Shown here: piece after piece, positions 8,575-63,246 of the stretch
Layout of the letters: each line of letters starts with the position of its first letter
Position numbering within the stretch: position 1 is the stretch's first letter
Assembly: GCA_964016885.1 (NCBI GenBank)
Contig: OZ024740.1
Coordinates: forward strand, 33,542,001 to 33,606,000
Length of the DNA stretch: 64,000 nt
Direction: 5' to 3'
From: Eledone cirrhosa
Lineage: Eukaryota
Translations under genes and position numbers: made by a program
The notes under the pieces: model-generated
Told to the model about the DNA's origin: nothing
Seen by the model: only the letters and a program-made list of their open reading frames with translations
The model's database searches: none

Positions 8575-9034
8575 TGTCAGGTTCATAACCATTCCGAGGG
8601 TATTATCCATGTGAAGAATGAAATGAAATGTTTACAATTGAGAAGTGAAACTTAACCGAAGGCTCACTTTGCCGGCAGCTTATCTAGACGGCTCTTATCA
8701 ACACTAGAAATTGTTAGTTGACAAATGAAATAATTGTTTCTACTTTTGGCACAAGGCCAGCAATTACCAGTGCATTACTGGTACTTTATTTTATATTTCA
8801 TCCTTACGGGGTCGATAAAATAAAGTACCAGTAATGCACTGGTAATTGCTGGCCTTGTGCCTAAAGTAGAAACAATTATTTCATTTGTCAACTAACAATT
8901 TCTAGTGTTGATAAGAGCCGTCTAGATAAGCTCCCGGCAAAGTGAGCCTTCGGTTAAGTTTCACTTCTCAATTGTAAATATTTCATTTCATTCTTCACAT
9001 GGATAATACCCTCGGAATGGTTATGAACCTGACA
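8575..9034. repeat. Long inverted repeat (220-bp arms, 20-nt loop) centred on a truncated SINE
   Basis: 8575-8794 is the reverse complement of 8815-9034, with about 3 mismatches. Confidence 0.95.
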
Positions 9035-40429: not shown

Positions 40430-43400
40430 CTTCGCCCAGAACGGGTCGTAGTTCTGTATGTTGATGGGGGAGGGGGGAGAAATAGGCGAATGTGGCAAAG
40501 AAAAAGAAGGGGGCATTTGAGTTTCAAGTGTCATTGTGCCATTGTCCAGGTTTGCTCGTTTGAGACGATCAACGGAAACCGTTTCCCTGGAACCCCGAAT
40601 GTCTAGTTTGAAATGTTTGTCTGTGCGAGCAAGCACACGATAGGGTCCAGAGTACGGCCGTTGAAGAGGGGGTCGCACGGCGTCGTCTCTAACGAACACG
40701 TGTCCACAAGGCAATATCCCTTGGGACGGCAGTTTTTACAGTCTGCTTCCTAGTGCCCATCGATGGTAGATCCTTGAAATAAGAGTGAAGCCGGGACACG
40801 TAGGAAGCGGGGTCCTGCGAAGTCAGGTCAAAAGGGGCCAGCATTTGCCCCGGTAACGCCAGAGGAGTACCATAAACTAATTCGGCAGAGGAGAACCCAA
40901 GGTCCACCTTTACCGTCGACCGAATACCCAACAACACAATAGGTAGGTACTCGCTCCAACGTGAAGAGTCCATGGAAGCCCTTAAGGCGGCTTTGAGTTG
41001 CATGTGGAATCTTTCCACCATTCCGTTTGATGCTGGATGATATGCCGTGGTTCTTATGCGAGTGGCGCCAATAATTTGTGTTAATTCACGGAAGAGGTTC
41101 GATTCAAATTGACGACCGCGGTCTGTTGTTATTGTGGTTGGTACTCCAAAACGAGCGATCCATGCAGATACGAGAGTACGCGCTGTCGTTTCAGCAGTGA
41201 TATCTGTCATAGGGATGGCTTCAGGCCAACGCGAAATACGGTCAACGATCGTCAAAATATACGAATAACCACGACTAACCGGCCACGGGCCGACGATGTC
41301 CACATGAATGTGACGGAATCTGGCATCAGGACAGGTGAAAGTTCCGAGAGGAGCTTTAACGTGCTTATAAACTTTTGACTTTTGGCAAGCGACACAGGAA
41401 CGGCACCAAGCAGCAATGTCACGTCTCATATCAGGCCAGAAAAATCTGGCTGTTATGAGTTTTACTGAGGCTAATACTCCAGGGTGAGAAATGCCATGTA
41501 AAGCAAGAAACACAGTTCGTCGATGTTCCACTGGGACTAGAGGTCGTGGTGAGTCCAACGAAGCATTACACAGTATTTGTCCGTCAGCCGTTGAGATCGG
41601 AATGTATTTCAGTTTGCAATGTACAAACTCTGGTGATGTAACATCCAACGATTCGAGAGTGGGTTGAGCAGCTGCCATTCGATGTAAATCTATCTCCTCG
41701 GAAGACGAAATCGATGCGATCGGCAGGCGAGACAGCGCATCGGCCGCTGTATTCAAAGAACCCGGAATATGTTGAATGTCATTCGTGAACTGTGAGATGA
41801 AGTCCAGATGTCTCGTTTCTCTGGGCGAGTATTTGTCTGCTTTAGTTCGAAGAGCAAACGTCAAAGGTTTATGATCAGTGAAAATAGTGAACATTCTACC
41901 TTCAAGTACATGAGCAAAATGTTTCACTGATAAATATATTGCTAATAGCTCCCTGCCAAAGGTGCTATAGCGAGTTTCGGCAGGCTTTAACTTTCTCGAA
42001 AAGAACGCGAGTGGTTGCTGTAACCCCTCACACTTCTGCTGTAAGACTGCGCCCACGGCGCTATCCGAAGCATCAACACAGAGCGACAGCTCGGCGTTGG
42101 GCATGGGGTGGGCGAGCAAAGATGCAGTCGCTAACGCTTTCTTCACTTTCTCAAAATCCGCCAGGTGCGTTGCATTTAATGAAATGTTCATATTCTTCTG
42201 TCGACAGTTTTTAAAATATCTGTCAACGAGGACAGTAAGCTGGAACAATTAGGCACGAATAGCCTATAAAAATTCACAAGGCCCAAGAATTGCCGTAAAT
42301 GTCGAAGCGAACTTGGCGGAGGCAAATCCAAAATTGCCTTAACTTTTTCCGGAAGGGGCCGAATACCATCAGCATCAATAAAATGGCCCAAAAATGTTAG
42401 CGATGTCGAGCCGAAAACACACTTAGCGGCATTAACACGAACATTATATTTCTGTAAACGCCGAAATAAGATATCCAAATGTTTGGAATGTTGTTCAGGA
42501 GAAGAACTAGCAATCAGTACATCATCGATATACGTGTAAACAAAATCGAGACCACGAGTGACATCATCCATGAATCGTTGGAAAGTACTTGCAGCATTTC
42601 TAAGTCCGAAAGGCATAGTGAGGAACTCGAATGATCCGAAAGGAGTGGCAATAGCAGTCTTTGGAATATCCTCATTTTTAACCGGAATTTGATTATAAGC
42701 GTGGATCAAATCAAGCTTAGAAAAGATTCTACAACCCTGCAATGACGATGCAAAATCCTGTAAATGCGGGATTGGATAACGGTCAGGCACAGTAATCGCG
42801 TTTAAGCGTCAGTAGTCACCCGTCGGTCTCCAATCACCAGAAGATTTAAGTACCATATGCAGAGGCGATGCCCAAGGACTTGTGGAACGCCGAATTATTC
42901 CTAATTCCAGCATGTGGTCGAATTCAAGACGTGCAGCTTTCAACTTCTCTGCAGATAATCTTCGAGGACGTGAGAAAACGGGTGGACCTGTAGTGGATAT
43001 AAAGTGTTCAATCACATGATCCGGACTAACAATTTGTAATCTTCCTTGCGTCAGCTGTGGGAATGATTTTAACAAACTGTGATACTGGTTGCCCACTTCA
43101 GCCAAGAAAAAAGCAGGGCTTACTGTGGCGATCTCCGGCTTTGTACCCTCGAACGATAGGCCTGTATTAGCATCAAAAAGTCGTTGTCTGCGGATGTCAA
43201 TCGACAAGGAAAAATGGTGGAGGAAATCCGCTCCCAAAATGGCGTATGGCAAGTCGGCGATAGTAAACTTCCACTTCAATCCACGACGCAAATTTTTAAA
43301 CCGAAGAGGAAGCGAAATTTGCCCGTACGTTCGAATGGCCGTGTTGTTGATTGCTCGTAAATTGATATTTGATTCAGATGGGGTTCTTTTAAGATAACTG

Positions 43401-43500
43401 ACTGGCCAAATACTTAGTGACGCGCCAGTGTCGACAAGAAAAAATTTTTTTGACTGCAGATCGTACACAAAAAGATGACGGTTTGGTCAAGTTTCCCAGA
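40430..43500 (-). pseudogene. Gypsy pol (PR-RT-RH-IN) broken by stops and frameshifts
   Basis: ORF pieces 42809-43468, 42188-42790, 40689-42248 and 40307-40714 are collinear pol domains. Confidence 0.93.
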
Positions 43501-43515
43501 GTTCACTAGCCGCCC

Positions 43516-44138
43516 CTAGTGGCTCTGATTGGAACTCCTATAGTTGCAAGGCGCCCGACTGCCAAAGTTAACATGATACCAACAAATCGAAGGATTACTG
43601 CTGCCTGAAGTGTAGTGTTGGCGAGGAACAGAAGACGGTAGCGAACGGTACTCGTAGCGGTTTCGAGGAATAGCAGACGGAGGCGAACGGTACCTTAAAC
43701 GTTGAGAAGGCTCTCTATGTTGTACAGTCAAATCTTCTACCTTTTTGGTGAGAGCTTCAATCAACTCCAACAGTCTGCTGTCGGCCACAGAAGAATTGCG
43801 TGGGGGGACGCAAGCCGAAGCCACATAAGGATTATGCCGATTGCTGTTCGAGTCCACCTCAAGTATTCTATCCGCGGACGCGGCAAGTTGCTCTAACGAC
43901 ACCCTACCGACTTGGTATTTCGACGAAGAATTTCGTTTTTTAATGAGCCGTAGGTAACGTCGGCGTCCAAATCCGTCACAACGTCCTTCACTGAGAATGC
44001 CAAGGAAACAGGTAGGCCATTGATCAGGACCTTCAGCTTATGCTGTTCTTTTGTCTGTGTTAATTCAAAGAAACATTCCAGCTGCGGAAACCACAACTTG
44101 ATGTCGCCTGCGAAGGACGGCAAATGATGTTGACTCAT
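43516..44138 (-). pseudogene. Gypsy gag, internally deleted and frameshifted
   Basis: LPSFAGDIKLWFPQLECFF N-terminus joined to LEQLAASADRILE and the CWYH knuckle. Confidence 0.85.
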
Positions 44139-44899
44139 GGTGCCACGTATTTGATGAATTTTTGGTGTTGGTTAATAGTTAGCCAGGTGTTGCTGCTGAT
44201 GGCTGGTACTTGGTGGTAGCCGTTTTGAAATACTGCTAATTTTTTTCTTTAAAAAAAAATTTCTAAATAAAATTTGATTAAAAAAAAAAAATCATTTTCC
44301 ATGAAAGTTATGACAGAAATATTGTGCAGGCCGCGTGCTTCAACAAATGGAATATTATGAATTTTATGGACTTACGCTAAGTGAGTCTAGCTACCCGATT
44401 CGAACATTCCAAATGTTAAGCCACTCCACATTGCCGTTAAAACGAATGGCGAATTCAAATAGGCTGCGTTTTCATACTTAATCGTCGAAGGTCACCAATT
44501 TAGCAGCATGGTAAATTAAATGTTATTGAGACACGAGTAACATAATAATGATATCAACAGCAGAAATTAGAGATGAAATGTATGTTAATTTTTGTTGTAG
44601 CACAAATAATGTTGGTTAACTTGTATGGTTGAAGTTACACATAAAAATGAGGTTACAAAAGGGAATGTGTCATTGCGCCGGAAAGTCGGCAGGTTAAGGT
44701 GCAAAATCTCACCGTCACATGTACGTGTTGCTGGTTCGAAGTCCCAGGTGCGAGAGAGAGATTTTCTTCAAATCTTCGCGGGTAATTTCTCTCTCAGGAC
44801 GTGTAGGGATACATCCCCTTCTGCTGGCGCTGATTGGCTGAGCTGAGCCAAATCACGCACAGAGAATGTATGTGAGCCCGCGGAATGTAGGTCACTACA

Positions 44900-47450
44900 A
44901 TAGTGATGGTAATGATGGTGTTGATAGTGATGGTAATGATGGTGTTGATAGTGATGGTAATGATGGTGTTGATAGTGATGGTAATGATGGTGTTGATGGT
45001 GATGGTGTTGATAGTGATGGTAATGATGGTGTTGATAGTGATGGTAATGATGGTGTTGATGGTGATGGTAATGATGGTGTTGATGGTGATGGTTATGATG
45101 GTGTTGATGGTGGTCATAGTGATGGTAATGATGGTGGTGATAGTGATGGTAATGATGGTGTTGATGGTGATGGTAATGATGGTGTTGATGGTGATGGTAA
45201 TGATGGTGTTGATGGTGATGGTGTTGATAGTGATGGTTATGATGGTGTTGATGGTGGTCATAGTGATGGTAATGATGGTGGTGATAGTGATGGTAATGAT
45301 GGTGTTGATGGTGATGGTAATGATGGTGTTGATAGTGATGGTAATGATGGTGTTGATAGTGATGGTAATGATGGTGTTGATAGTGATGGTAATGATGGTG
45401 ATGGTAATGATGGTGTTGATAGTGATGGTAATGATGGTGTTGATGGTGATGGTTATGATGGTGTTGATAGTGATGGTTATGATGGTGTTGATGGTGGTCA
45501 TAGTGATGGTAATGGTGATGGTAATGATGGTGTTGATAGTGATGGTGTTGATAGTGATGGTAATGATGGTGTTGATAGTGATGGTAATGATGGTTTTGAT
45601 AGTGATGGTAATGATGGTGTTGATAGTGATGGTAATGATGGTTTTGATAGTGATGGTAATGATGGTGTTGATAGTGATGGTAATGATGGTGGTCATAGTG
45701 ATGGTAATGATGGTGGTGATAGTGATGGTAATGATGGTGTTGATAGTGATGGTAATGATGGTGGTGATAGTGATGGTAATGATGGTGTTGATAGTGATGG
45801 TAATGATGGTGGTCATAGTGATGGTAATGATGGTGGTGATAGTGATGGTAATGATGGTGTTGATAGTGATGGTAATGATGGTGTTGATAGTGATGGTAAT
45901 GATGGTGTTGATGGTGATGGTAATGATGGTGGTGATAGTGATGGTAATGATGGTGTTGATAGTGATGGTAATGATGGTGTTGATGGTGATGGTAATGATG
46001 GTGTTGATGGTGATGGTAATGATGGTGGTGATAGTGATGGTAATGATGGTGTTGATAGTGATGGTAATGATGGTGTTGATAGTGATGGTAATGATGGTGT
46101 TGATGGTGATGGTAATGATGGTGGTGATAGTGATGGTAATGATGGTGTTGATGGTGATGGTAATGATGGTGTTGATAGTGATGGTAATGATGGTGTTGAT
46201 AGTGATGGTAATGATGGTGTTGATAGTGATGGTAATGATGGTGATGGTAATGATGGTGTTGATAGTGATGGTGTTGATAGTGATGGTAATGATGGTGTTG
46301 ATGGTGATGGTTATGATGGTGTTGATAGTGATGGTTATGATGGTGTTGATGGTGGTCATAGTGATGGTAATGGTGATGGTAATGATGGTGTTGATAGTGA
46401 TGGTGTTGATAGTGATGGTAATGATGGTGTTGATAGTGATGGTAATGATGGTTTTGATAGTGATGGTAATGATGGTGTTGATAGTGATGGTAATGATGGT
46501 TTTGATAGTGATGGTAATGATGGTGTTGATAGTGATGGTAATGATGGTGGTCATAGTGATGGTAATGATGGTGGTGATAGTGATGGTAATGATGGTGTTG
46601 ATAGTGATGGTAATGATGGTGGTGATAGTGATGGTAATGATGGTGTTGATAGTGATGGTAATGATGGTGGTCATAGTGATGGTAATGATGGTGGTGATAG
46701 TGATGGTAATGATGGTGTTGATAGTGATGGTAATGATGGTGTTGATAGTGATGGTAATGATGGTGTTGATGGTGATGGTAATGATGGTGGTGATAGTGAT
46801 GGTAATGATGGTGTTGATAGTGATGGTAATGATGGTGTTGATGGTGATGGTAATGATGGTGTTGATGGTGATGGTAATGATGGTAATGATGGTGTTGATA
46901 GTGATGGTGTTGATAGTGATGGTAATGATGGTGTTGATAGTGATGGTAATGATGGTGTTGATAGTGATGGTAATGATGGTGTTGATAGTGATGGTGTTGA
47001 TAGTGATGGTAATGATGGTGTTGATAGTGATGGTAATGATGGTGTTGATAGTGATGGTAATGATGGTGGTGATAGTGATGGTAATGATGGTGTTGATGGT
47101 GATGGTGTTGATAGTGATGGTAATGATGGTGTTGATAGTGATGGTAATGATGGTGTTGATAGTGATGGTAATGATGGTGGTGATAGTGATGGTAATGATG
47201 GTGGTGATAGTGATGGTGTTGATAGTGATGGTGTTGATAGTGATGGTAATGATGGTGTTGATAGTGATGGTAATGATGATGTTGATTGTGATGGTTATGA
47301 TGGTGTTGATAGTGATGGTAATGATGGTGTTGATAATGATGGTGATGATGATGAGGTTTATAGTGATTCTGATGATGTTGATGATGATGATCATCATCAT
47401 CATGGTGATAATAGTGATGGCTGATGATAAGAATGATGATGATGATGACT
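44900..47450. repeat. GAT/GGT-rich minisatellite, main block (~2.5 kb)
   Basis: Triplet-based units such as agtgatggtaatgatggtgttgat; stop-free in three frames. Confidence 0.98.
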
Positions 47451-47509
47451 GTATGTTACTTTATAGTGAAATGCATTTAATTATTAACACTTTCATATAT
47501 ATTTCACAG

Positions 47510-52450: not shown

Positions 52451-53478
52451 TCATTACCCAGAGGTAGCATCAACAATATAAACAACTGAAACTTGCATTC
52501 TTCAATCTGATTTGTTCCAATCCTGTTGCAGCTGTTGAGCATGCTAATAACATTGGTCATCCATATTCTGTTAACTAAGACTCTCTTCTCTTACCTCTGA
52601 CATTTACGTGTGAGTAGCTATGCTAAACCCATCTCCATCACACAAAACTCATTTGTCATCTAATACAGATACATTAATTTAACAATTAACAATATTAATC
52701 TTTAATTCTGACACACTGTAAAGTTAAATAATTTGAAGCATATAATGTTCAGCAAGTTAAACATAAACAATTAAAGGTAAAAACTTGCTGCATGCAGAAG
52801 GTAACTGATTCAGTAAATAATCTGTTCTTTATACAATGAGAATTCATAAATTGTGTGTAAATAATTTGTGAAAGTAAATAAACAGTGAAGCCATTGTTTA
52901 CGCTATTAACCTTTCGTCATCATGTTTCTAATGGAAGACACTGCCTATGTCATTAACCATTTCATTACCATATTTCTAACAAAAAGACATGATTTTCAAA
53001 TAATTTTGATAATAAAAAAAATAAAAATTTAAGGGATTCAGGGATATAACTAACTTGCCTATTATGAAGCTGGTATTTGGAATATAACTTTACATAAAAT
53101 TATAATGGAAGGTTTTGGGTAAATATAAGCACTTTGAAATACATGGTTTTGTATCATAAGGACCAGGAGAGGTTTCAGGTAGTTTTGTATTATAAGGGAT
53201 AAGGAAGGGATCATATTCCTGATACGAATGGCTGACTTGTTTGATGAAAACCTTTAATAAGACAGTAAGATGTATTTGGTATTTAATAAGACAGTAAGAA
53301 ATATTGGGTATGTAATAAAACAGTAAGAAACTTTAAATAGAGGTTGGTTCATACATATTTTCTTCAGAATGTTAAAGTGATAATATAAATATTTGTTTAT
53401 TGTTGAGAACTCATGACCTTAAATCTCTCTGAATTCTATAGTTTATTGTTTCTGGTTTATTTATATATATATTTCCAG

Positions 53479-53648
53479 ATTTCAAGAGGACAATTTATGT
53501 AAACTTGATGATAACCAAAGAGCCCAATTTGCTGACATGACTGTTTCTTGCTGGTTAAACTTCAGATTACAAATGATAGGTGTTGCTATCATTTCTGGGG
53601 TGGCCATCATTGCTGTTATTGAACATCATTTTCAAACATCTAATGTGG
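53479..53648 (+). CDS. ABCC10: ABCC10 coding exon 13 (gene continues beyond the window)
   Basis: ttccag|ATTTC ... GTGG|gtaggt; LDDNQRAQF...WLNFRLQMIGVAII; phase 2/1. I found no further ABCC exon through 64000. Confidence 0.92.
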
Positions 53649-53798
53649 GTAGGTGTTAACAGTTACTTCTTTTATAAGATGACAGCATTTATATACAAAT
53701 CACAGGTGCATGTGTACACATGCACACACATATATACACATGCACACACATATATATATAGTGGACTAGGGGCTTTTGTTGTGTGTGTGTATATATAT

Positions 53799-53965
53799 AT
53801 CATCATCATTGTTTAACGTCTATCTTCCACGCTAGCATGAGTTAGACAGGAATTGTCCTACGTGAGACAAGATTGGTTGGGTGACCGTGTCTCGCTCTTA
53901 TAGGACTATCTGGCAGGTTTTCTACGGTTGGATGCCCTTCCTAACACCAACCACATTTACAGTGT
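53799..53965 (-). mobile_element. RTE family 2, 3' tip
   Basis: (CAT)n tail with gtttaacgtc...ggatgcccttcctaacaccaaccacatttacagtgt. Confidence 0.8.
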
Positions 53966-54023
53966 ATTTAATGCATATATATATATATATATATATACAT
54001 AATGTATATATATATATATATAT

Positions 54024-54221
54024 GAGTAGGACCCCGAGGGCTGAGCTCAAGCCGTTTCGACGGCTAATTCTGGACTGATTTTAGTCCAGAATTAGCCGTC
54101 GGAACGGCTTGAGCTCAGCCGTCGGGGGTCCTACTCGTTCCTATTACCCACTCTACTACCCTAAGTATTGAGTACTTTGGTGCGTTATGGTCCACCTGGT
54201 TCCTTACCACATTTCCTTCGT
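54024..54221 (+). mobile_element. Penelope-like/retrozyme fragment: hammerhead 3' half with fold-back palindrome (54024-54136)
   Basis: GAAAC-GGCT-tgagctc-AGCCG-TC stem III and cleavage triplet reconstructed from the two arms; flanked by (TA)n on both sides. Confidence 0.6.
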
Positions 54222-54271
54222 TATATATATATATATACATAAAGTACACCATCACCATTAAGGACACACTT

Positions 54272-54310
<39 letters not shown>

Positions 54311-54311
<1 letters not shown>

Positions 54312-56502
54312 AGAAGTGTGTCCTTAATGGTGATGGTGTACTTGCCATCACTGACGCTGATAAGAAGGTAGCTTGGAAGTGTCACTACGAAAGGCTACTA
54401 AATGAGGAGAATAATTGGGAGAAAGACAATCTCCCCCACATCGATCCAATAGAGGGTCAAGCAGTGCAAGTTGAAGGTAGTATAATAAGTAAGGTGATCA
54501 AAGACATGAAGACAGGCAAGGCGGCTGGGTCTTCGGAAATAGTTGCTGAAATACTGAAAGCATCTGGAACGGTGGCACACACTATGGTTACCCGGATAGT
54601 AAACCAAATCATACAGAATGGGATCGTTCCGAAGGACTGGCGCAGCAGCTTCATCATTAACTGCTACAAGGGTAAAGGAGATGCCCTAGATAGGGGAAAC
54701 TATAGAGGCATTAAATTAATTGACCAGGTCATGAAGGTCACAGAAAAAGTAATAGCGCAACTAATCAGAGAGCGAATTGATCTAGATGAAATGCAGTTCG
54801 GGTTTATGTCAGGTAAAAGTACCACAGACGCTCTTTTCATTGTACGACAACTACAGGAGAAGTACCTAGCTAAAGATAAACCCCTATACTTAGCTTTTGT
54901 TGACTTGGAGAAAGCTTTTGACAGAGTACCCCGCTCGATTATCTGGTGGGCCCTTAGAAAACTAGGTGTTGATGAATGGCTTGTGAGAGCTATACAAGCC
55001 ATGTATAAAGAAACAGTCAGCAAGGTTAGAATTAACAATGAATATAGTGAAGAGTTTAGCGTAAAAGTTGGTGTTCATCAGGGCTCCGTCTTAGCCCCCT
55101 ACTATTTATTATTGCCCCTCAGGCTATAACAGAGGAGTTCAAGACCGGCTGCCCATGGGAACTTCTATATGCAGATGATCTAACGCTCATAGCTGAATCA
55201 ATGGCTGAACTAGAGAACTAGAGAAGAAATTCCAAACATGGAAGCATGACGTAGAATCAAAAGGCCTTAAAATTAACCTGTCTAAGACTAAAGTTCTAGT
55301 TTGTAGGAAGGAAAATAGGGCACTGGTCCCATCTGGGAAATGGCCATGCTCAGTGTGTAGGAAAGGAGTAGGCAGAAACTCCATTTTATGTCCCAAATGC
55401 AAAGTATGGGTGCATAAAAGATGTAGTGGGATCACAGGTAAGCTAACTAAGAATATAGATTTTATATGTGGCCGGTGCTCAGGTGCAATAAATAGCAGCA
55501 AGTGCCCACAGAGTACTAGCTCATTCCATTGCACAGATGGTTCTATAGAAATAGTGGACACCTTCCATTACCTGGGTGACAAAATCAGCAGTGGTGGAGG
55601 GTGCTCTGAAAGTACAATAGCTAGAGTCAGAATGGGATGGAAAAAGTTCAGAGAGCTTATACCACTATTGGCCGCTAAAGGGTTCTCTCTAAAAATGAAA
55701 GGCAGGCTGTATGATGCCTGCAAACGAACAGCAATTACATGGCAGTGAGACTTGGGCATTGTGTGCAGAGGATATACGCAGACTGGAGAGGAATGAAGCT
55801 TGCATGCTCCGTTGGATGTGTAATAGTAATATACGTGAATGGCAAAGCATAAATGAACTAAGGGAGAAATTAGGAATAAGAGGAATCAGATGTTGTTTAC
55901 TCGAGAGAAGACTACGTTGGTATGGTCACTTAATGCGCATGAAAGACGACAGCTGTATAAAAAAGTGCAGGGCGATAAAAATAGACGGTAGCCACGGAGT
56001 AGGCAGACCCAGAAAAACTTGGGACAACTTGATAAATTCCCACCTCACACACTTACACCTCTCCAAGACAATGTCACTGGACCGAGATCTTTGGCGCTAC
56101 ACAGTAATACAGAAGACCCACCTTACCTAAGTACAAAGCGAAACCTACAGCCAGTAAGCACCTCTAACAAAAATAACCCCCCACCCCACCCCCACCCCCC
56201 CACCCCATCTTTCGATGTAATGTTATGTTGGTACCACAATATCCAGTCCGAAATAAATGAGGTTGTGTAGGTGTCACGAAAAAAAAAACACACAGTCTAC
56301 GCTGTAATGTGGCCGTGTAGGTAACGGTAAAAACCTCCCAGTTCCACACTGTAAATGTGGTTGGTATTAGGAAGGGCATCCAGCCGTAGAAAACCCACCA
56401 GACAGTCCTATGCGAGCAAGACAACCAATCTTGCCTCAAGTGGGAAAACTCCCGTCCAAACCCATGCAAGCGTGGAAGATGGACGTTAAATGATGATGAT
56501 GA

Positions 56503-56505
<3 letters not shown>
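54311..56505 (+). mobile_element. RTE family 2 LINE, 5'-truncated and frameshifted
   Basis: RT (YKGKGD..NYRGIKL, QFGF, FVDLEKAFDRV, GVHQGS, YADD), finger, RLRWYGH; (GAT)n tail. Confidence 0.96.
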
Positions 56506-56549
<44 letters not shown>

Positions 56550-56595
56550 ATGTATATATATATATACACATAATGTATATATATATATACACATA

Positions 56596-56634
<39 letters not shown>

Positions 56635-56670
56635 ATGTATATATATATATATATATATATACACATAATG

Positions 56671-56703
<33 letters not shown>

Positions 56704-57000
56704 TATATATAATATTTATATATATATAATATATATATATAATATTTATATATATATAATATATATATATAATATTTATATATATATAATATATATATAT
56801 TATATATATATATATATATATAATATATATATATATATACACATAATGTATATATATATATATACACATAATGTATATATATATATATACACATAATGTA
56901 TATATATATATATATATATATACACATAATGTATATATATATATATATATATAATATATATATATAATATTTATATATATATATATAATATATATATATA
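56505..57000. repeat. (TA)n compound microsatellite with cacataatg interruptions
   Basis: Direct inspection. Confidence 0.95.
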
Positions 57001-57386
57001 TCATCATCATCATCAACGTTTAACGTCCGTGTTCCACGCTTGCATGGGTTTGGACGGGGGTAGTCCCACTTGAGGCAAGAGTGATTGTCTTGCTCGCATA
57101 GGACTGTCTGGCAGGTTTTCTACAGTTGGATGCCCTTCCTAACACCAACCACATTTACAGTGTGGGTCTGGGAGGTTTTTCCCGTGTTGCCTACACGGCC
57201 ACATTACAGCGTGGACTGTGTGTTTTTTTGTCGTGACACCTACACGATCTCATTTGTTTCGGCCTCGATGGCGCGGCACCAACATAACTTTACATAGAAC
57301 GGGGTGGTGTGGATGGGGTGGTGGTGGTGGGACGGGGTGTATTTTGTTAGAGATGCCTACTGGCTGGAGTAGGTTTTACTATATAT

Positions 57387-60300
57387 TTAAGTAAGGCGGG
57401 TCTTCTCTGTTACTGAGTACCGCCAAAGGTCTCGGTCCAGTGACATTGTCTTGGAGAGGTGTAAGTGTGTGATGTCGGAGTTTATCAGCTCGTCCCAGGT
57501 TTTTCTAGGTCTGCCTATTCCGTGACTACCGTCTATCTTTATTGCCCTGCACTTTGTTATACAGCTATCGACTTTCATGCGCATCACGTGTCCATACCAA
57601 CGTAGCCTTCTCTCGAGTAAACAACATCTGATCCCTCTTATCTCTAATTTTTTCCTTAGTTCGTTTATGCTTTGCCGTTCACGTATATTACTGTTACACA
57701 TCCAGCGGAGCATGCAAGCTTCGTTCCTCTCTAGTCTGCGTATATCCTCTGCACACAATGCCCAGGTCTCACTGCCATGCAGCATTGCTGTTCGTATGCA
57801 GGCATCGTACAACCTGCCTTTCATTTTTAGGGAGAACCCTTTAGCAGCTAATAGTGGTATAAGCTCTCTGAACTTTTTCCAACCAGTTCTGACTCTAGCT
57901 ACAGTACTTTCAGAGCACCCTCCCCCACTGCTGATTTTATCGCCCAGGTAACGGAAGCTGTCCACTATTTCTATAGAACCCTCTGCGCAATTGAAAGAGC
58001 TAGTATTTTGTGGGCACTTGCTGCTACTTATTGCACTAGAACACCGGCCACATGTAAAATCTATGTTCTTAGTTAGCTTACATGTGATCCCACTACATCT
58101 TTTATGCACCCATACTTTGCATTTAGGACATAAAATGGAGTTTCTACCTACGCCTTTCCTACACACCGAGCACGACCATTTCCCAGAAGGGACCGCCGCC
58201 TTGTTTTCTTTCCTACAAACTAGTACTTTGGTCTTAGCCAGGTTAATTTTAAGTCCTTTTGACTCTAGGCCGTGCTTCCATGTTTGGAATTTCTTCTCTA
58301 GCTCGGCCATTGATTCCGCTATGAGTGTCAGGTCGTCTGCGTATAGGAGTTCCCATGGGCAGCCTGTCTTGAACTCCTCTGTTATAGCCTGAAGGGCAAT
58401 AATAAATAGTAGGGGGCTGAGAACAGAGCCCTGATGGACGCCAACTTTTACGCTAAACTCTTCACTATATTCGTTGTTAATTCTAACCTTGCTGACTGTT
58501 TCTTTATACATGGCTTGTATAGCCCTCACAAGCCATTCGTCAACGCCTAGTTTTCTAAGAGCCCACCAGATAATGGAGCGGGGGACTCTGTCGAAGGCTT
58601 TCTCCAAGTCGACAAAAGCTAAGTAGAGGGGTTTACCTTTAGCTAGGTACTTCTCCTGTAGTTGTCGTACTATGAAAAGAGCGTCTGTGGTACTTTTACC
58701 TGACACAAACCCGAACTGCATTTCATCTAGGTCAATTCTCTCTCTGATTAGTTGCGCTATTACTTTTTCCGTGACCTTCATGACCTGGTCGATTAATTTA
58801 ATGCCTCTATAGTTACTCCTATCTAGGGCGTCTCCTTTACCCTTATAACAGTTAACGATGATGCTGCTATGCCAGTCCTTCGGAACAACCCCATTCTGTA
58901 CGACTTGGTTAACTATGCGGGTGACCATGGTGTGTCCCACCGTGCCAGATGCCTTCAGCATCTCAGCAACTATTTCCGAAGGCCCAGCCGCCTTACCCGT
59001 CTTCATATCCTTGATTGCCTTACTTATTATACTCCCCTCGACTAACACTGCTGGTCCCTCTATTGGGTCGATATGGGGGAGACTGCCTTTCTCCCAATTA
59101 TTCTCCTCATTTAGTAGCCTTTCATAGTGACACTTCCAAGCTACCTTCTTATCAGCGTCGGTGATGGCAAGTGTGCCATCGTCGTTTAGTACACACTTCT
59201 CCCCGACAATATCACGGTTTTCCTTGACGCATTGCCTAGCAATCCTGAACACCTCACGTTTTTGGTCATCGCGTTGTAGAACATGCTTGAACTTTCTTTC
59301 CTCAGCTTCCCTTCTTGCTAAGTACACTTGTCTCCTAGCTTCCCTCCTGGCCACTTGATAGTCTTCTCTACTTCCCCCATCCCGCCATACTTTCCAAGCC
59401 TGCTTTTTGGCCTTAATTGACCCCTCCACCTTACTGTTCCACCACCATGTTACTCTCCTCCTGCCTACAGGCCTGCTCCAGCCACAGACTTCGTCTGTCG
59501 CCAACAGCAGGTTTGCTTTCAGAAATTCCCACTCTCCCTCTATATTGTCCGACTCTAAATGTTCTTCCTTACTGTCGAAAGCATCAAGTAATATGCTTTG
59601 AAATTTATTCCTGGCTGTGGGGTCCTTTAGCTTCCATATTTTTCTCCTGAGGATAGTCCTCTTCTGCTGTCGAGTACGTCTCGTCCTGACTATGAGGTCG
59701 CTAATTATCACTCTATGTTGGGAGGTGCATTATTCATGGGGGAGGGATTTAGTGTTTACAACAGACACTCTGTCACGTCTTCTGGTAAGGATATAATCTA
59801 CCTGGCTTGTGTGTTCCCCGGATCTATAGGTGATCAGGTGATTGTCACGTTTTTTGAAGTTAGTGTTACAGATAGTTAGGTTATTTGCATTACAGAATTC
59901 CAGGATTCTGGAGCCTTCCTCATTTCTAGTACCAAACCCATAGCCTCCATGGATTTCGTCGTAGCCGTCACAATGTTGTCCAACGTGACCATTTAGGTCG
60001 CCTGCGATAATTATATAGTCACTGTCGGATATTTGGGAGGTAGTTAGCATCAGTGTCTCATAGAATCTGTCTTTTATAGTGCCGGGCAGTCCGGATTGGG
60101 GTGCGTACGCAGATATTACTGTCACCGTAGTTCTATTGAGGACAAGTCGTATTTTAATTATTCTGTCGTTCACTCTATTTACGTCTATTATCTTATCTGC
60201 CCACTTTTCTGCTACCATGATTCCTACTCCACCCAGCCCATCGTCGTTTCCCACCCAGAAAAGCTTATAACATCGTTTTTTACCCTCAATGAACCTAGCA

Positions 60301-60557
60301 GACCCACCCCTCCACCTGGTCTCTTGAATACAACAAACATCGACCTCCTTACGTTCAAGCATTTCTACAACCTCGTTAGCGCGACCCTTTAGGGTGCCTA
60401 CATTTATGGTACCAACTCTGAAGTTTTGGATTGCGTTTGGGGGTTGGGGGCGGTGAGGGGCGGGGGGCGATGGGGTTATGTTAGCCGTCCGCGGTCGAAA
60501 CAATGAGGAGTGCTCGCATTCTCGTCCAAGAGGTGAATTTGTCTTTATCTTTGGCAT
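57387..60557 (-). pseudogene. RTE ORF (APE endonuclease + RT + PHD-type finger) with one premature stop
   Basis: GTINVGTL, IQETRW, SAYAPQ, GDLNGH and SQVDYIL (APE). An in-frame TAA at 59730-59732 (PHE*CTSQHRVIISDL) is followed by the 774-aa RT part in the same frame. Confidence 0.95.
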
Positions 60558-60783
60558 TGTCGCTGAGCGTCCAGATTTTTCTCTCTCTCACCTCCACTCT
60601 CCAGGATTCCGCAGTCCATTCATCCATCATATATCGAAAGGCAACCAGGCAAGCGATAGTATAGGCCTCTGGTTTCTGATTTGGTCCGCGTAATAATACT
60701 GGTGATGCGTGGGGGCTCTGTTTTATGATTGGTCCACGTAATAGCAATGGTGGTGCGTGGGGGTGGGAGGGAGGGGTGTTGGG

Positions 60784-61087
60784 TAGCTAGCAAGAAGGTA
60801 ATGATTGAATGGGGTCCTTGCATTTAACAAGCGATTAACAAAAATACAAAATTTGTTCTGTTAAATACGCCCAAAAACTTTCGTATTTAACAATTAATAG
60901 AAACAGAAAATGTAGTTTGTTTTAGCGATAGATTGGCTATTTGGACTTGATACGAAATATGGATTGTTTTGAAAATACGCTAGAATTAAGATTTGTGGAG
61001 GGAGAGAAATGAAAACTGTACATTACGTTTACATGAATATCGTGGATGGACAGCAAGCAATGAAATTTGGCGAAGTGAATTCCTATC

Positions 61088-61138
<51 letters not shown>

Positions 61139-61607
61139 GAGAGCGAGGGGGGGGGGCCACATGATGGCTGTGGGTGTTAGGCGTTTGACCGCCCCGTGCC
61201 TTCGAAGAAGGAAGAAGGAAAGGATTTTGTTTTTTTTGTTTTGAAGATACGCTAGAATTAGGGATTGAGGTTTGAAAATACGTTAGGAATTAAGGTTTGA
61301 AAATAGCTAGCAAGAAGGTAATGATTGAATGGGGTCCTTGCATTTAACAAGCGATTAACAAAAATACAAAATTTGTTCTGTTAAATACGCCCAAAAACTT
61401 TCGTATTTAACAATTAATAGAAACAGAAAATGTAGTTTGTTTTAGCGATAGATTGGCTATTTGGACTTGATACGAAATATGGATTGTTTTGAAAATACGC
61501 TAGAATTAAGATTTGTGGAGGGAGAGAAATGAAAACTGTACATTACGTTTACATGAATATCGTGGATGGACAGCAAGCAATGAAATTTGGCGAAGTGAAT
61601 TCCTATC

Positions 61608-61655
<48 letters not shown>

Positions 61656-62129
61656 TGAGAGAGCGAGCGGGGGGGGGGGCACATGATGGCTGTGGGTGTT
61701 AGGCGTTTGACCGCCCCGTGCCTTCGAAGAAGGAAGAAGGAAAGGATTTTGTTTTTTTTGTTTTGAAGATACGCTAGAATTAGGGATTGAGGTTTGAAAA
61801 TACGTTAGGAATTAAGGTTTGAAAATAGCTAGCAAGAAGGTAATGATTGAATGGGGTCCTTGCATTTAACAAGCGATTAACAAAAATACAAAATTTGTTC
61901 TGTTAAATACGCCCAAAAACTTTCGTATTTAACAATTAATAGAAACAGAAAATGTAGTTTGTTTTAGCGATAGATTGGCTATTTGGACTTGATACGAAAT
62001 ATGGATTGTTTTGAAAATACGCTAGAATTAAGATTTGTGGAGGGAGAGAAATGAAAACTGTACATTACGTTTACATGAATATCGTGGATGGACAGCAAGC
62101 AATGAAATTTGGCGAAGTGAATTCCTATC

Positions 62130-62163
<34 letters not shown>

Positions 62164-62417
62164 TGAGAGAGAGAGTGAGAGAGCGAGGGGGGGGGGGGGC
62201 CACATGATGGCTGTGGGTGTTAGGCGTTTGACCGCCCCGTGCCTTCGAAGAAGGAAGAAGGAAAGGATTTTGTTTTTTTTGTTTTGAAGATACGCTAGAA
62301 TTAGGGATTGAGGTTTGAAAATACGTTAGGAATTAAGGTTTGAAAATAGCTAGCAAGAAGGTAATGATTGAATGGGGTCCTTGCATTTAACAAGCGATTA
62401 ACAAAAATACAAAATTT
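60784..62417. repeat. ~520-bp tandem repeat, 3.1 copies
   Basis: tagctagcaagaaggtaatg starts at 60784, 61304, 61826 and 62347. Confidence 0.97.
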
Positions 62418-62819
<402 letters not shown>

Positions 62820-62849
62820 AGATCAAAAGATGGTTAAAGGAGTTCAATA

Positions 62850-62920
62850 TATTTTATTATGCGCATTTCAAAAACAAACATCATCAAACAATAATATTTG
62901 TGTTTTCATCAGATAAAACA
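62850..62920 (-). ncRNA. Type I hammerhead ribozyme, mirror copy in the left palindrome arm
   Basis: Exact reverse complement of 63041-63111. Confidence 0.8.
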
Positions 62921-63040
62921 GGAGAACATGATATGAAGGCTAAAAAAACACTTGTTGATAGTGCAGTTTTAAATCAACATATGTTGATTTAAAACTGCAC
63001 TATCAACAAGTGTTTTTTTAGCCTTCATATCATGTTCTCC

Positions 63041-63111
63041 TGTTTTATCTGATGAAAACACAAATATTATTGTTTGATGATGTTTGTTTTTGAAATGCGC
63101 ATAATAAAATA
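63041..63111 (+). ncRNA. Type I hammerhead ribozyme
   Basis: Stem I tgttttat/ataaaata; CUGAUGA at 63049-63055; stem II 63056-63091 (caaatattat/atgatgtttg with G-U pairs); GAAA at 63092-63095; minimal stem III with palindromic UGCGCA; AUA cleavage triplet. Confidence 0.82.
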
Positions 63112-63246
63112 TATTGAACTCCTTTAACCATCTTTTGATCTTATATTATGCATACTCCAGTCCCACAAACTGTAGAGTGCTTCTTATCCGATATCTGCAT
63201 TGCTTTATTGTACTACAATAAAACTCACCTCCTACATATATATATA

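Follow-up and report, generated by a model that had tools for sequence, protein, structure and literature searches.

A fold-back copy of an abundant short repeat in an octopod ABCC10 intron, most likely of Penelope type

The window (the whole stretch of DNA that was analyzed, 64,000 nt) is, judged by its coding content, octopod DNA. It contained 13 collinear coding stretches of ABCC10, running from 14483 to 53647, and the large ABCC10 exon was 93% identical to a protein of Octopus bimaculoides, 75% identical to one other match, and 35 to 45% identical to the remaining 30 matches. A fold-back sequence at 54024-54221 lies in the ABCC10 intron directly after the plus-strand exon at 53477-53650, which corresponds to amino acids 1185 to 1241 of the O. 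bimaculoides protein; the next 3' exon is outside the window. The parts and neighbors of the fold-back are given in Table 1.

Several other repeats were found in the window. The 5' end of the truncated LINE beside the fold-back is duplicated in inverted orientation (33 nt) around (TA)n at 54242-54343, an arrangement that reads as a snap-back at this self-complementary microsatellite. At 54312-60587, a compound (TA)n minisatellite is flanked by two tail-to-tail copies, about 90% alike, of a single LINE family (APE, RT, and PHD finger); open frames of 285 and 780 amino acids lie in the copy on the minus strand. A Ty3/gypsy-like element with protease, RT, RNase H, and integrase domains occupies 40692-44171 (minus strand) inside an ABCC10 intron. 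The palindrome found at 8575-9034 has arms of 220 nt that are 99% complementary, separated by a spacer of 20 nt. A CAT-based tandem array of 2.7 kb occupies 44770-47460, and a tandem unit of about 520 nt is present at 60790-62420 as three copies plus a partial one, all of them containing TA/GA and G runs.

Table 1. Features of the fold-back, its flanks, and the compared insert (positions in the window)
Feature	Position	Strand	Remarks
Candidate target-site duplication, left copy	53982-54023		Up to 42 nt; (TA)n with CATAA interruption; 21-nt exact match to start of right flank
Inverted head copy, without tail	54024-54076	-	53 nt; private change at 54038; stops 5-8 nt before the short end common in the family
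Junction of two copies, A/T-rich tips	54077-54082		6-nt spacer
Forward head copy	54083-54136	+	54 nt; private change at 54102
7-nt direct repeat, first copy	54094-54100	+	Second copy at 54117-54123
Hammerhead-like 3' half	54101-54123	+	GAAA site, 5-bp stem III, GUC; no CUGAnGA half
Short outer end of the family	54141-54144	+	Many copies run into (TA)n from here
Tail, one end only	54145-54221	+	~77-80 nt; long outer end into (TA)n
Candidate target-site duplication, right copy	54222-54242		Cut after 21 nt by later LINE insertion
LINE, 5'-truncated, RT and PHD finger	54242-56505	+	Adjoins the fold-back, separate from it
Unrelated fold-back, same layout	62807-63236		174-nt arms, no spacer, (TA)n at both ends

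The original prediction, made from the letters of the window, described a 113-bp imperfect palindrome, and the palindrome at 54024-54136 proved real, with arms and fold energy in agreement (z = -13.8). Its arms differ by two substitutions (54038 and 54102) and by one extra G in the run at 54124-54128. The 198 nt of the fold-back gave a fold energy of -122.5 kcal/mol (z = -13.79), and none of 200 shuffles was equally stable. No second copy of the fold-back occurred elsewhere in the 64-kb window. The distinctive core of the flank duplicate, TATACATAA, occurred in the window only at 53994 and 54234; the duplication candidate of 21 to 42 nt comes from one insertion only and lies inside a microsatellite and is therefore weak.

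The repeat family was followed in public reads and contigs aligned to the 230 bases at 54008-54237, from 4 of 19 listed runs: contigs (X1) and RAD reads (X17) of organism A, and contigs of organisms B and C (X4 and X6). Matches numbered 21,094 contigs in X1 and 25,524 of 12,467,656 reads in X17, and diverged relatives were present in organisms B and C. The family is a very high-copy short repeat that is common to other organisms. Among the best 19 of 490 loose ends, exits into (TA)n were represented by 2,220 reads before 54025 (mirror), 1,006 behind 54144, and 805 and 846 at the long end near 54221. Two alternative outer ends thus lie about 80 nt apart (54141-54144 and ~54221), with the intervening tail at the right end only in the copy studied here. 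Consensus ends in X1 and X17 were (TA)n; neither of the two long-end flanks listed for X6 was. As predicted, each arm carries a different single core mutation (54038 versus 54102). The family letter was A at 54102 in 8,180 of 8,225 reads and C at 54038 in 3,960 of 4,340 reads (X17), and because the family letters restore both core positions, both defects are private to this copy.

Pattern scans of viral contigs and genome contigs returned no family matches, and the 25 loci returned from metagenome contigs were all chance matches of 17 to 24 letters in unrelated sequence. Family motifs of 7 to 14 letters had no match among the cephalopod entries of the Naiad/Hydra consensus files that accompany PMC8557442. 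No GIY-YIG or Penelope-type domain of an autonomous partner was found in the 89 of 136 window frames that were scanned, and no full copy of the family element was seen in the data examined. The family was not found in print by sequence motif, topic, or supplements, a search that lay outside the O. vulgaris repeat library, Repbase, and Dfam, and is apparently undescribed. In a supplement to PMC13282606, Penelope-like elements are given as 6.83% of the O. vulgaris genome. By eye, the tail (at 54152-54177) is similar to the final 60 nt of the Hydra-2_Amil consensus, with a short hairpin and a similar loop; the 10-letter motif occurred once in 583,000 characters, and the likeness may be due to chance.

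Both arms were interrogated for hammerhead features. The GAAA position (54101-54104) reads GGAA in the forward arm, stem III pairs 54105-54109 with 54117-54121 around a loop that contains a 6-nt palindrome, and the GUC triplet ends at 54123. The family has the GAAA, the A-U pair closing stem III, and the NUH triplet of a type I hammerhead, and the copy studied here has this set broken once per arm. The claim that CUGAnGA is missing held on both strands of 54024-54221, exactly or with one mismatch, and the motif was likewise absent from the plus strand of 53650-54320 even with one mismatch. The fold-back had no hammerhead match at the Rfam gathering score, and none of the 117 Rfam matches at E ≤ 10 in the 50- to 64-kb region was a hammerhead; microRNA matches among them were rejected as generic hairpins below the gathering score. 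Single-arm folds of the copy did not form the three-way junction. Stem II is not formable within one copy, where its partner strand is the inverted copy only, and "stem II" and "stem I" are interpretive names rather than observed features. The 7-nt repeat at 54094-54100 can, by its predicted pairing with 54105-54109, compete with stem III.

A half core of this kind (GAAA or GGAA, a stem of at least 5 bp, and UH) arose in 9 of 5,000 shuffles of 54080-54221, in a test that was post hoc, and the window contained nine such GAAA sites on both strands, so that the half core alone is not rare. It stands about 100 nt from the long end, as do the Hydra-clade hammerheads tabulated in supplement S2 of PMC8557442. 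At the loose ends of a second subtype of the family, the letters around GUC are kept and the following sequence is different. The block of GAAA, stem III, and GUC is likely a 3' half left over from a type I hammerhead; the matching CUGAnGA half would have been upstream in the parent element. The copy is predicted to be unable to cleave on its own, and its ribozyme function was rated nil. The noncircular hammerhead orders CSG, SGC, and GCS, as set out in PMC10085705, were considered and rejected, the first copy of the 7-nt repeat abutting GAAA with no CUGAnGA downstream.

The original prediction placed the center of the palindrome in a preexisting stem II hairpin of the ribozyme. Similarity to the family stops near 54080 on the right arm and at 54076-54079 on the left. 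Depth in X1 at 54077-54079 was 1.2 to 1.6% of that at 54195, a rough ratio since repeat bodies inflate the depth of contigs; the matching reads in X17 numbered 116 at 54079 versus 1,519 at 54086. Four contigs of organisms B and C cross the boundary into A/T-rich sequence, and X4 was without any depth over 54032-54079, even though 126 to 131 upstream letters are present in two of its contigs. The four contigs (X4 and X6) yield three upstream strings of 30 letters. None of the three had the expected CTGAnGA directly 5' of the hairpin, and none had the complement of the "stem II 3' strand." With only 1 to 2% of family depth crossing the center and no upstream string that fits, the hairpin interpretation of the center was not sustained; the 18-bp "stem" is no more than a portion of the inverted pair of copies. 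The upstream strings are A/T-rich but not (TA)n, two of them agree by eye in 12 of 15 letters up to TTTA, and they may be internal to the element rather than flank.

Inner joints between arms were variable. Among the best 15 of 119 joints, 12 were skip joints, in which the inverted arm ended at 54063-54077 and the forward partner started at 54108-54183; microhomology at these joints averaged 2.17 nt, versus 0.69 nt over 1,216 random joints (P = 2e-5). The anticipated enrichment of breakpoints at the center was partly seen: 6 of the 12 best-supported joints ended, on one arm, at 54075-54077 (P = 0.004). Three "opposite strand" joints at 54024-54030 are located at the outer end and were excluded. 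These counts are biased, as they cover the best-supported joints, assign joints ending before 54057 to the other arm, and miss near-symmetric fold-backs, which appear as gapped pieces rather than joints. Half of the eight listed X1 records spanned the center, three of the four with 13 gap letters, which indicates that near-symmetric palindromes recur with different centers. Sharp molecule ends in X17 at 54069 and 54090 coincide with AATT sites at 54066 and 54090 and are read as RAD-library restriction cuts, so that, where copies of this subtype are concerned, X17 is no test of the center. The two arms have matching alleles at four polymorphic pairs (54067/54092, 54042/54117, 54029/54131, and 54024/54136). 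Our reading is that the center is the family's own 5' tip, where a cDNA end was joined via a few matching bases, and that here both arms reached that tip.

The fold-back near 63 kb served as a comparator. Its inverted arm has no tail and its forward arm has a tail of 82 nt, each arm carries both hammerhead core halves (CTGATGA at 63049 and GAAA at 63092), and the sequence turns at 62980/62981, which is 68 nt upstream of the CTGATGA and not at stem II. The two inserts belong to separate families, as had been proposed: blastn gave no match between them, and their local alignment score was reached by 393 of 500 shuffles. The 63-kb copy is a perfect fold-back with a long A/T-rich stem II, and a T-rich AG precedes its CTGATGA by 27 nt. 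The two unrelated families of the window both have tails of about 80 nt, longer than the published 30 to 40 bp.

Together with the layout, these observations suggest that the insert is probably a copy of an abundant, short (~140-nt), noncoding octopod repeat that was placed into (TA)n by a Penelope-like RT-endonuclease, with cDNAs joined at the 5' tip. A GIY-YIG nick in (TA)n would prime cDNA synthesis at one of two internal start sites, and the cDNA would extend as far as the template's 5' end. Its 3' end could then anneal via one to four matching bases, either back onto itself or onto another cDNA primed from the opposite target strand, so that the inverted arm would be rebuilt at each insertion. 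In this copy, two cDNAs, likely of full length, would have joined head to head at the A/T-rich 5' tip of the repeat; as neither arm would have stopped short of it, the palindrome is close to perfect and resembles a long stem. Self-copying and a second cDNA both allow the shared arm alleles, and two primed cDNAs account better for the fixed short end that runs into (TA)n. The insert is thus most likely a largely ordinary Penelope-type fold-back stub of an abundant repeat. On this reading, such palindromes arise via microhomology at the cDNA end and not via a ribozyme hairpin, and a short family with a fixed inner end is a good natural data set for distinguishing self-priming from two-cDNA joining in Penelope replication.

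Penelope insertions are described by Craig et al. (2021; PMC8557442) as having an inverted 5'-truncated copy, a one-ended tail, and a (TA)n bias. The family studied here has the inverted, 5'-joined copy with a variable junction, and it has the tail at one end with two alternative 3' ends, the tail being longer than published. As in the EN+ Penelope-like insertions portrayed in PMC3846280 and PMC8557442, copies stand head to head with a one-ended tail in what is probably a (TA)n target; the palindromic junction is read there as self-priming, and solo pLTRs are held to be mobilized in trans. Self-priming at palindromic junctions of inverted pLTRs was proposed in 2013 by Arkhipova et al. (PMC3846280). 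The original prediction had offered self-priming at stem II as a general cause of inverted pLTRs; self-priming as such is accordingly not new, and the 63-kb fold-back turns elsewhere.

Several differences from those accounts count against a Penelope-type explanation. Unlike the EN+ insertions, the family had neither an ORF nor an autonomous partner in the frames and consensus files searched, its tail is about 80 nt versus 30 to 40 nt, and one arm mostly extends to a single fixed 5' point, which is unusual since Penelope stubs are described as variably truncated; in addition, the two X6 long-end flanks are not (TA)n. The duplication candidate is up to 42 nt long, compared with 8 to 10 bp reported for Penelope-like elements of A. 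vaga.

Poseidon PAc of Anolis, as characterized in PMC11167929, has two adjacent RT start sites that define its tail and AT-rich nicks on both strands. The family is like PAc in its two alternative 3' ends downstream of the hammerhead and its probably AT-rich target and unlike it in that PAc contains a whole hammerhead with the ORF start inside, neither of which is present here. Mutations of the PAc hammerhead left insertion unaffected in vitro (Frangieh et al. 2024; PMC11167929), so a stub without the 5' half of the ribozyme could still be mobilized. The half core shares C-GAAA, a 4- to 5-bp stem III, a palindromic loop, and an NUH triplet that precedes the 3' end by about 100 nt with the Penelope hammerheads illustrated by Cervera and de la Pena (2014; PMC4209133) and in PMC8557442; in contrast to those hammerheads, CUGAnGA and the 5' strands of stems I and II were absent from all family sequence examined. 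Non-LTR retrozymes, as presented in bioRxiv 10.64898/2026.07.22.740005, are likewise short, nonautonomous, and likely derived from Penelope pLTRs, but they are tandem units with a whole type I hammerhead, whereas this family is dispersed and inverted with a half core. The fold-back, a single inverted insert with no CUGAnGA, was not assigned to that class.

Alternatives to the Penelope-type fold-back were weighed against the same data. The family could be the 3' part of a longer pLTR with a short stem II, a long and fast-changing A/T-rich loop or intron, and CUGAnGA more than 30 nt upstream, with short copies stopping at a T-rich boundary. The TTT before 54083 is kept in nearly all right-arm copies (flat X1 depth over 54080-54092), all listed boundaries and the window itself resemble by eye a splice acceptor (T-rich and then AG), and the 450 X17 molecules that end at 54080 agree with an AATT site shared immediately upstream. 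In D. virilis, the intron of Penelope is reported in PMC4209133 to end at helix I, and cephalopod Naiads are listed as "HHR_half_core" in a supplement to PMC8557442. Against this, the six best loose ends of X1 or X17 had no shared upstream continuation, whereas the listing included (TA)n continuations with as few as 23 contigs, and the three upstream strings lose their similarity to each other within some 15 letters. We regard this explanation as unlikely.

It is rather improbable that the family is unrelated to Penelope, being a SINE-like or a Helitron-like rolling-circle repeat in which nested 6- to 7-nt inverted repeats mimic half a hammerhead by chance. Helitron 3' ends have a GC-rich hairpin near the end, and a 16-nt GC-rich hairpin was found on the minus strand about 13 nt from the fixed end; the end fixed at one side, the post hoc nature of the motif test, and the lack of an Rfam hammerhead match also agree with this idea. 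No tRNA-like fold was found (ARAGORN predicted 0 genes, and no tRNA was among the 117 Rfam matches), and the layout matches that of the hammerhead-bearing insert at 63 kb. Overlapping head-to-head arms, two outer ends joined to (TA)n, and a long duplication, the last a candidate here, are not known as Helitron or SINE features. A tRNA-derived SINE was rejected, there being no tRNA-like head and only weak A and B box-like letters by eye.

Self-priming at stem II, in which the template holds the 18-bp hairpin and the cDNA snaps back on it and copies itself, was judged quite improbable. The clustering of one arm's breakpoints at the center and the listed X1 records that span it are in its favor, as are the shared alleles that it predicts, found at all four polymorphic pairs; the upstream view covers 30 letters, and a long-loop ribozyme in rare master copies could extend beyond them. 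Shared alleles are equally expected from two cDNAs of one RNA species, and the six best X1 loose ends included none at 54059. The upstream strings, the stretch of zero depth in X4, the low depth at the center with gapped spanning records, and the turning point of the 63-kb fold-back all argue against it.

A further reading, which we consider very improbable, is that a massively amplified octopod mini-element with a fixed, splice-acceptor-like 5' end carries exactly a hammerhead's substrate half (the 3' strand of stem II, GAAA, stem III, GUC, and the 3' strand of stem I) and receives CUGAnGA by splicing from an exon upstream or in trans from the RNA of the autonomous Penelope element. Should the half core prove active in trans, it would represent a natural split hammerhead, and the parasite's processing would be tied to its helper by a two-part ribozyme.

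That the whole palindrome is a fixed MITE-like unit moving as DNA is extremely unlikely: its long inverted arms and TA flanks would suit such a unit, but the center, with a depth of 1 to 2% of the body, is rarely spanned, the joints vary, the tail is one-ended, no fixed outer end was found at 54024, and the arms are not terminal. The family is treated as a separate one that was probably mobilized by Penelope rather than as a fixed MITE.

Hammerhead-like ends were also inspected in published Naiad consensus sequences. According to Craig et al. (PMC8557442), Naiads are without canonical hammerheads, and the type CSG of Eckert et al. (PMC10085705) is represented there by two metagenome sequences only, with no known organism. 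The consensus before Naiad_Hpol in supplement S5 of PMC8557442 (by table order Naiad_Hcon, from Haemonchus contortus) contains, by eye, a complete hammerhead in the CSG order named in PMC10085705, that is, CUGAnGA, cleavage site, and GAAA. Its stems I, II, and III measure 6, 5, and 9 bp, with GUC and an extra 8-bp helix. In the end of Naiad_Obim (PMC8557442), GAAA stands, by eye, upstream of CTGATGA with flanks that pair. The Naiad entries labeled "HHR_core" and "half_core" in that supplement may be permuted hammerheads.
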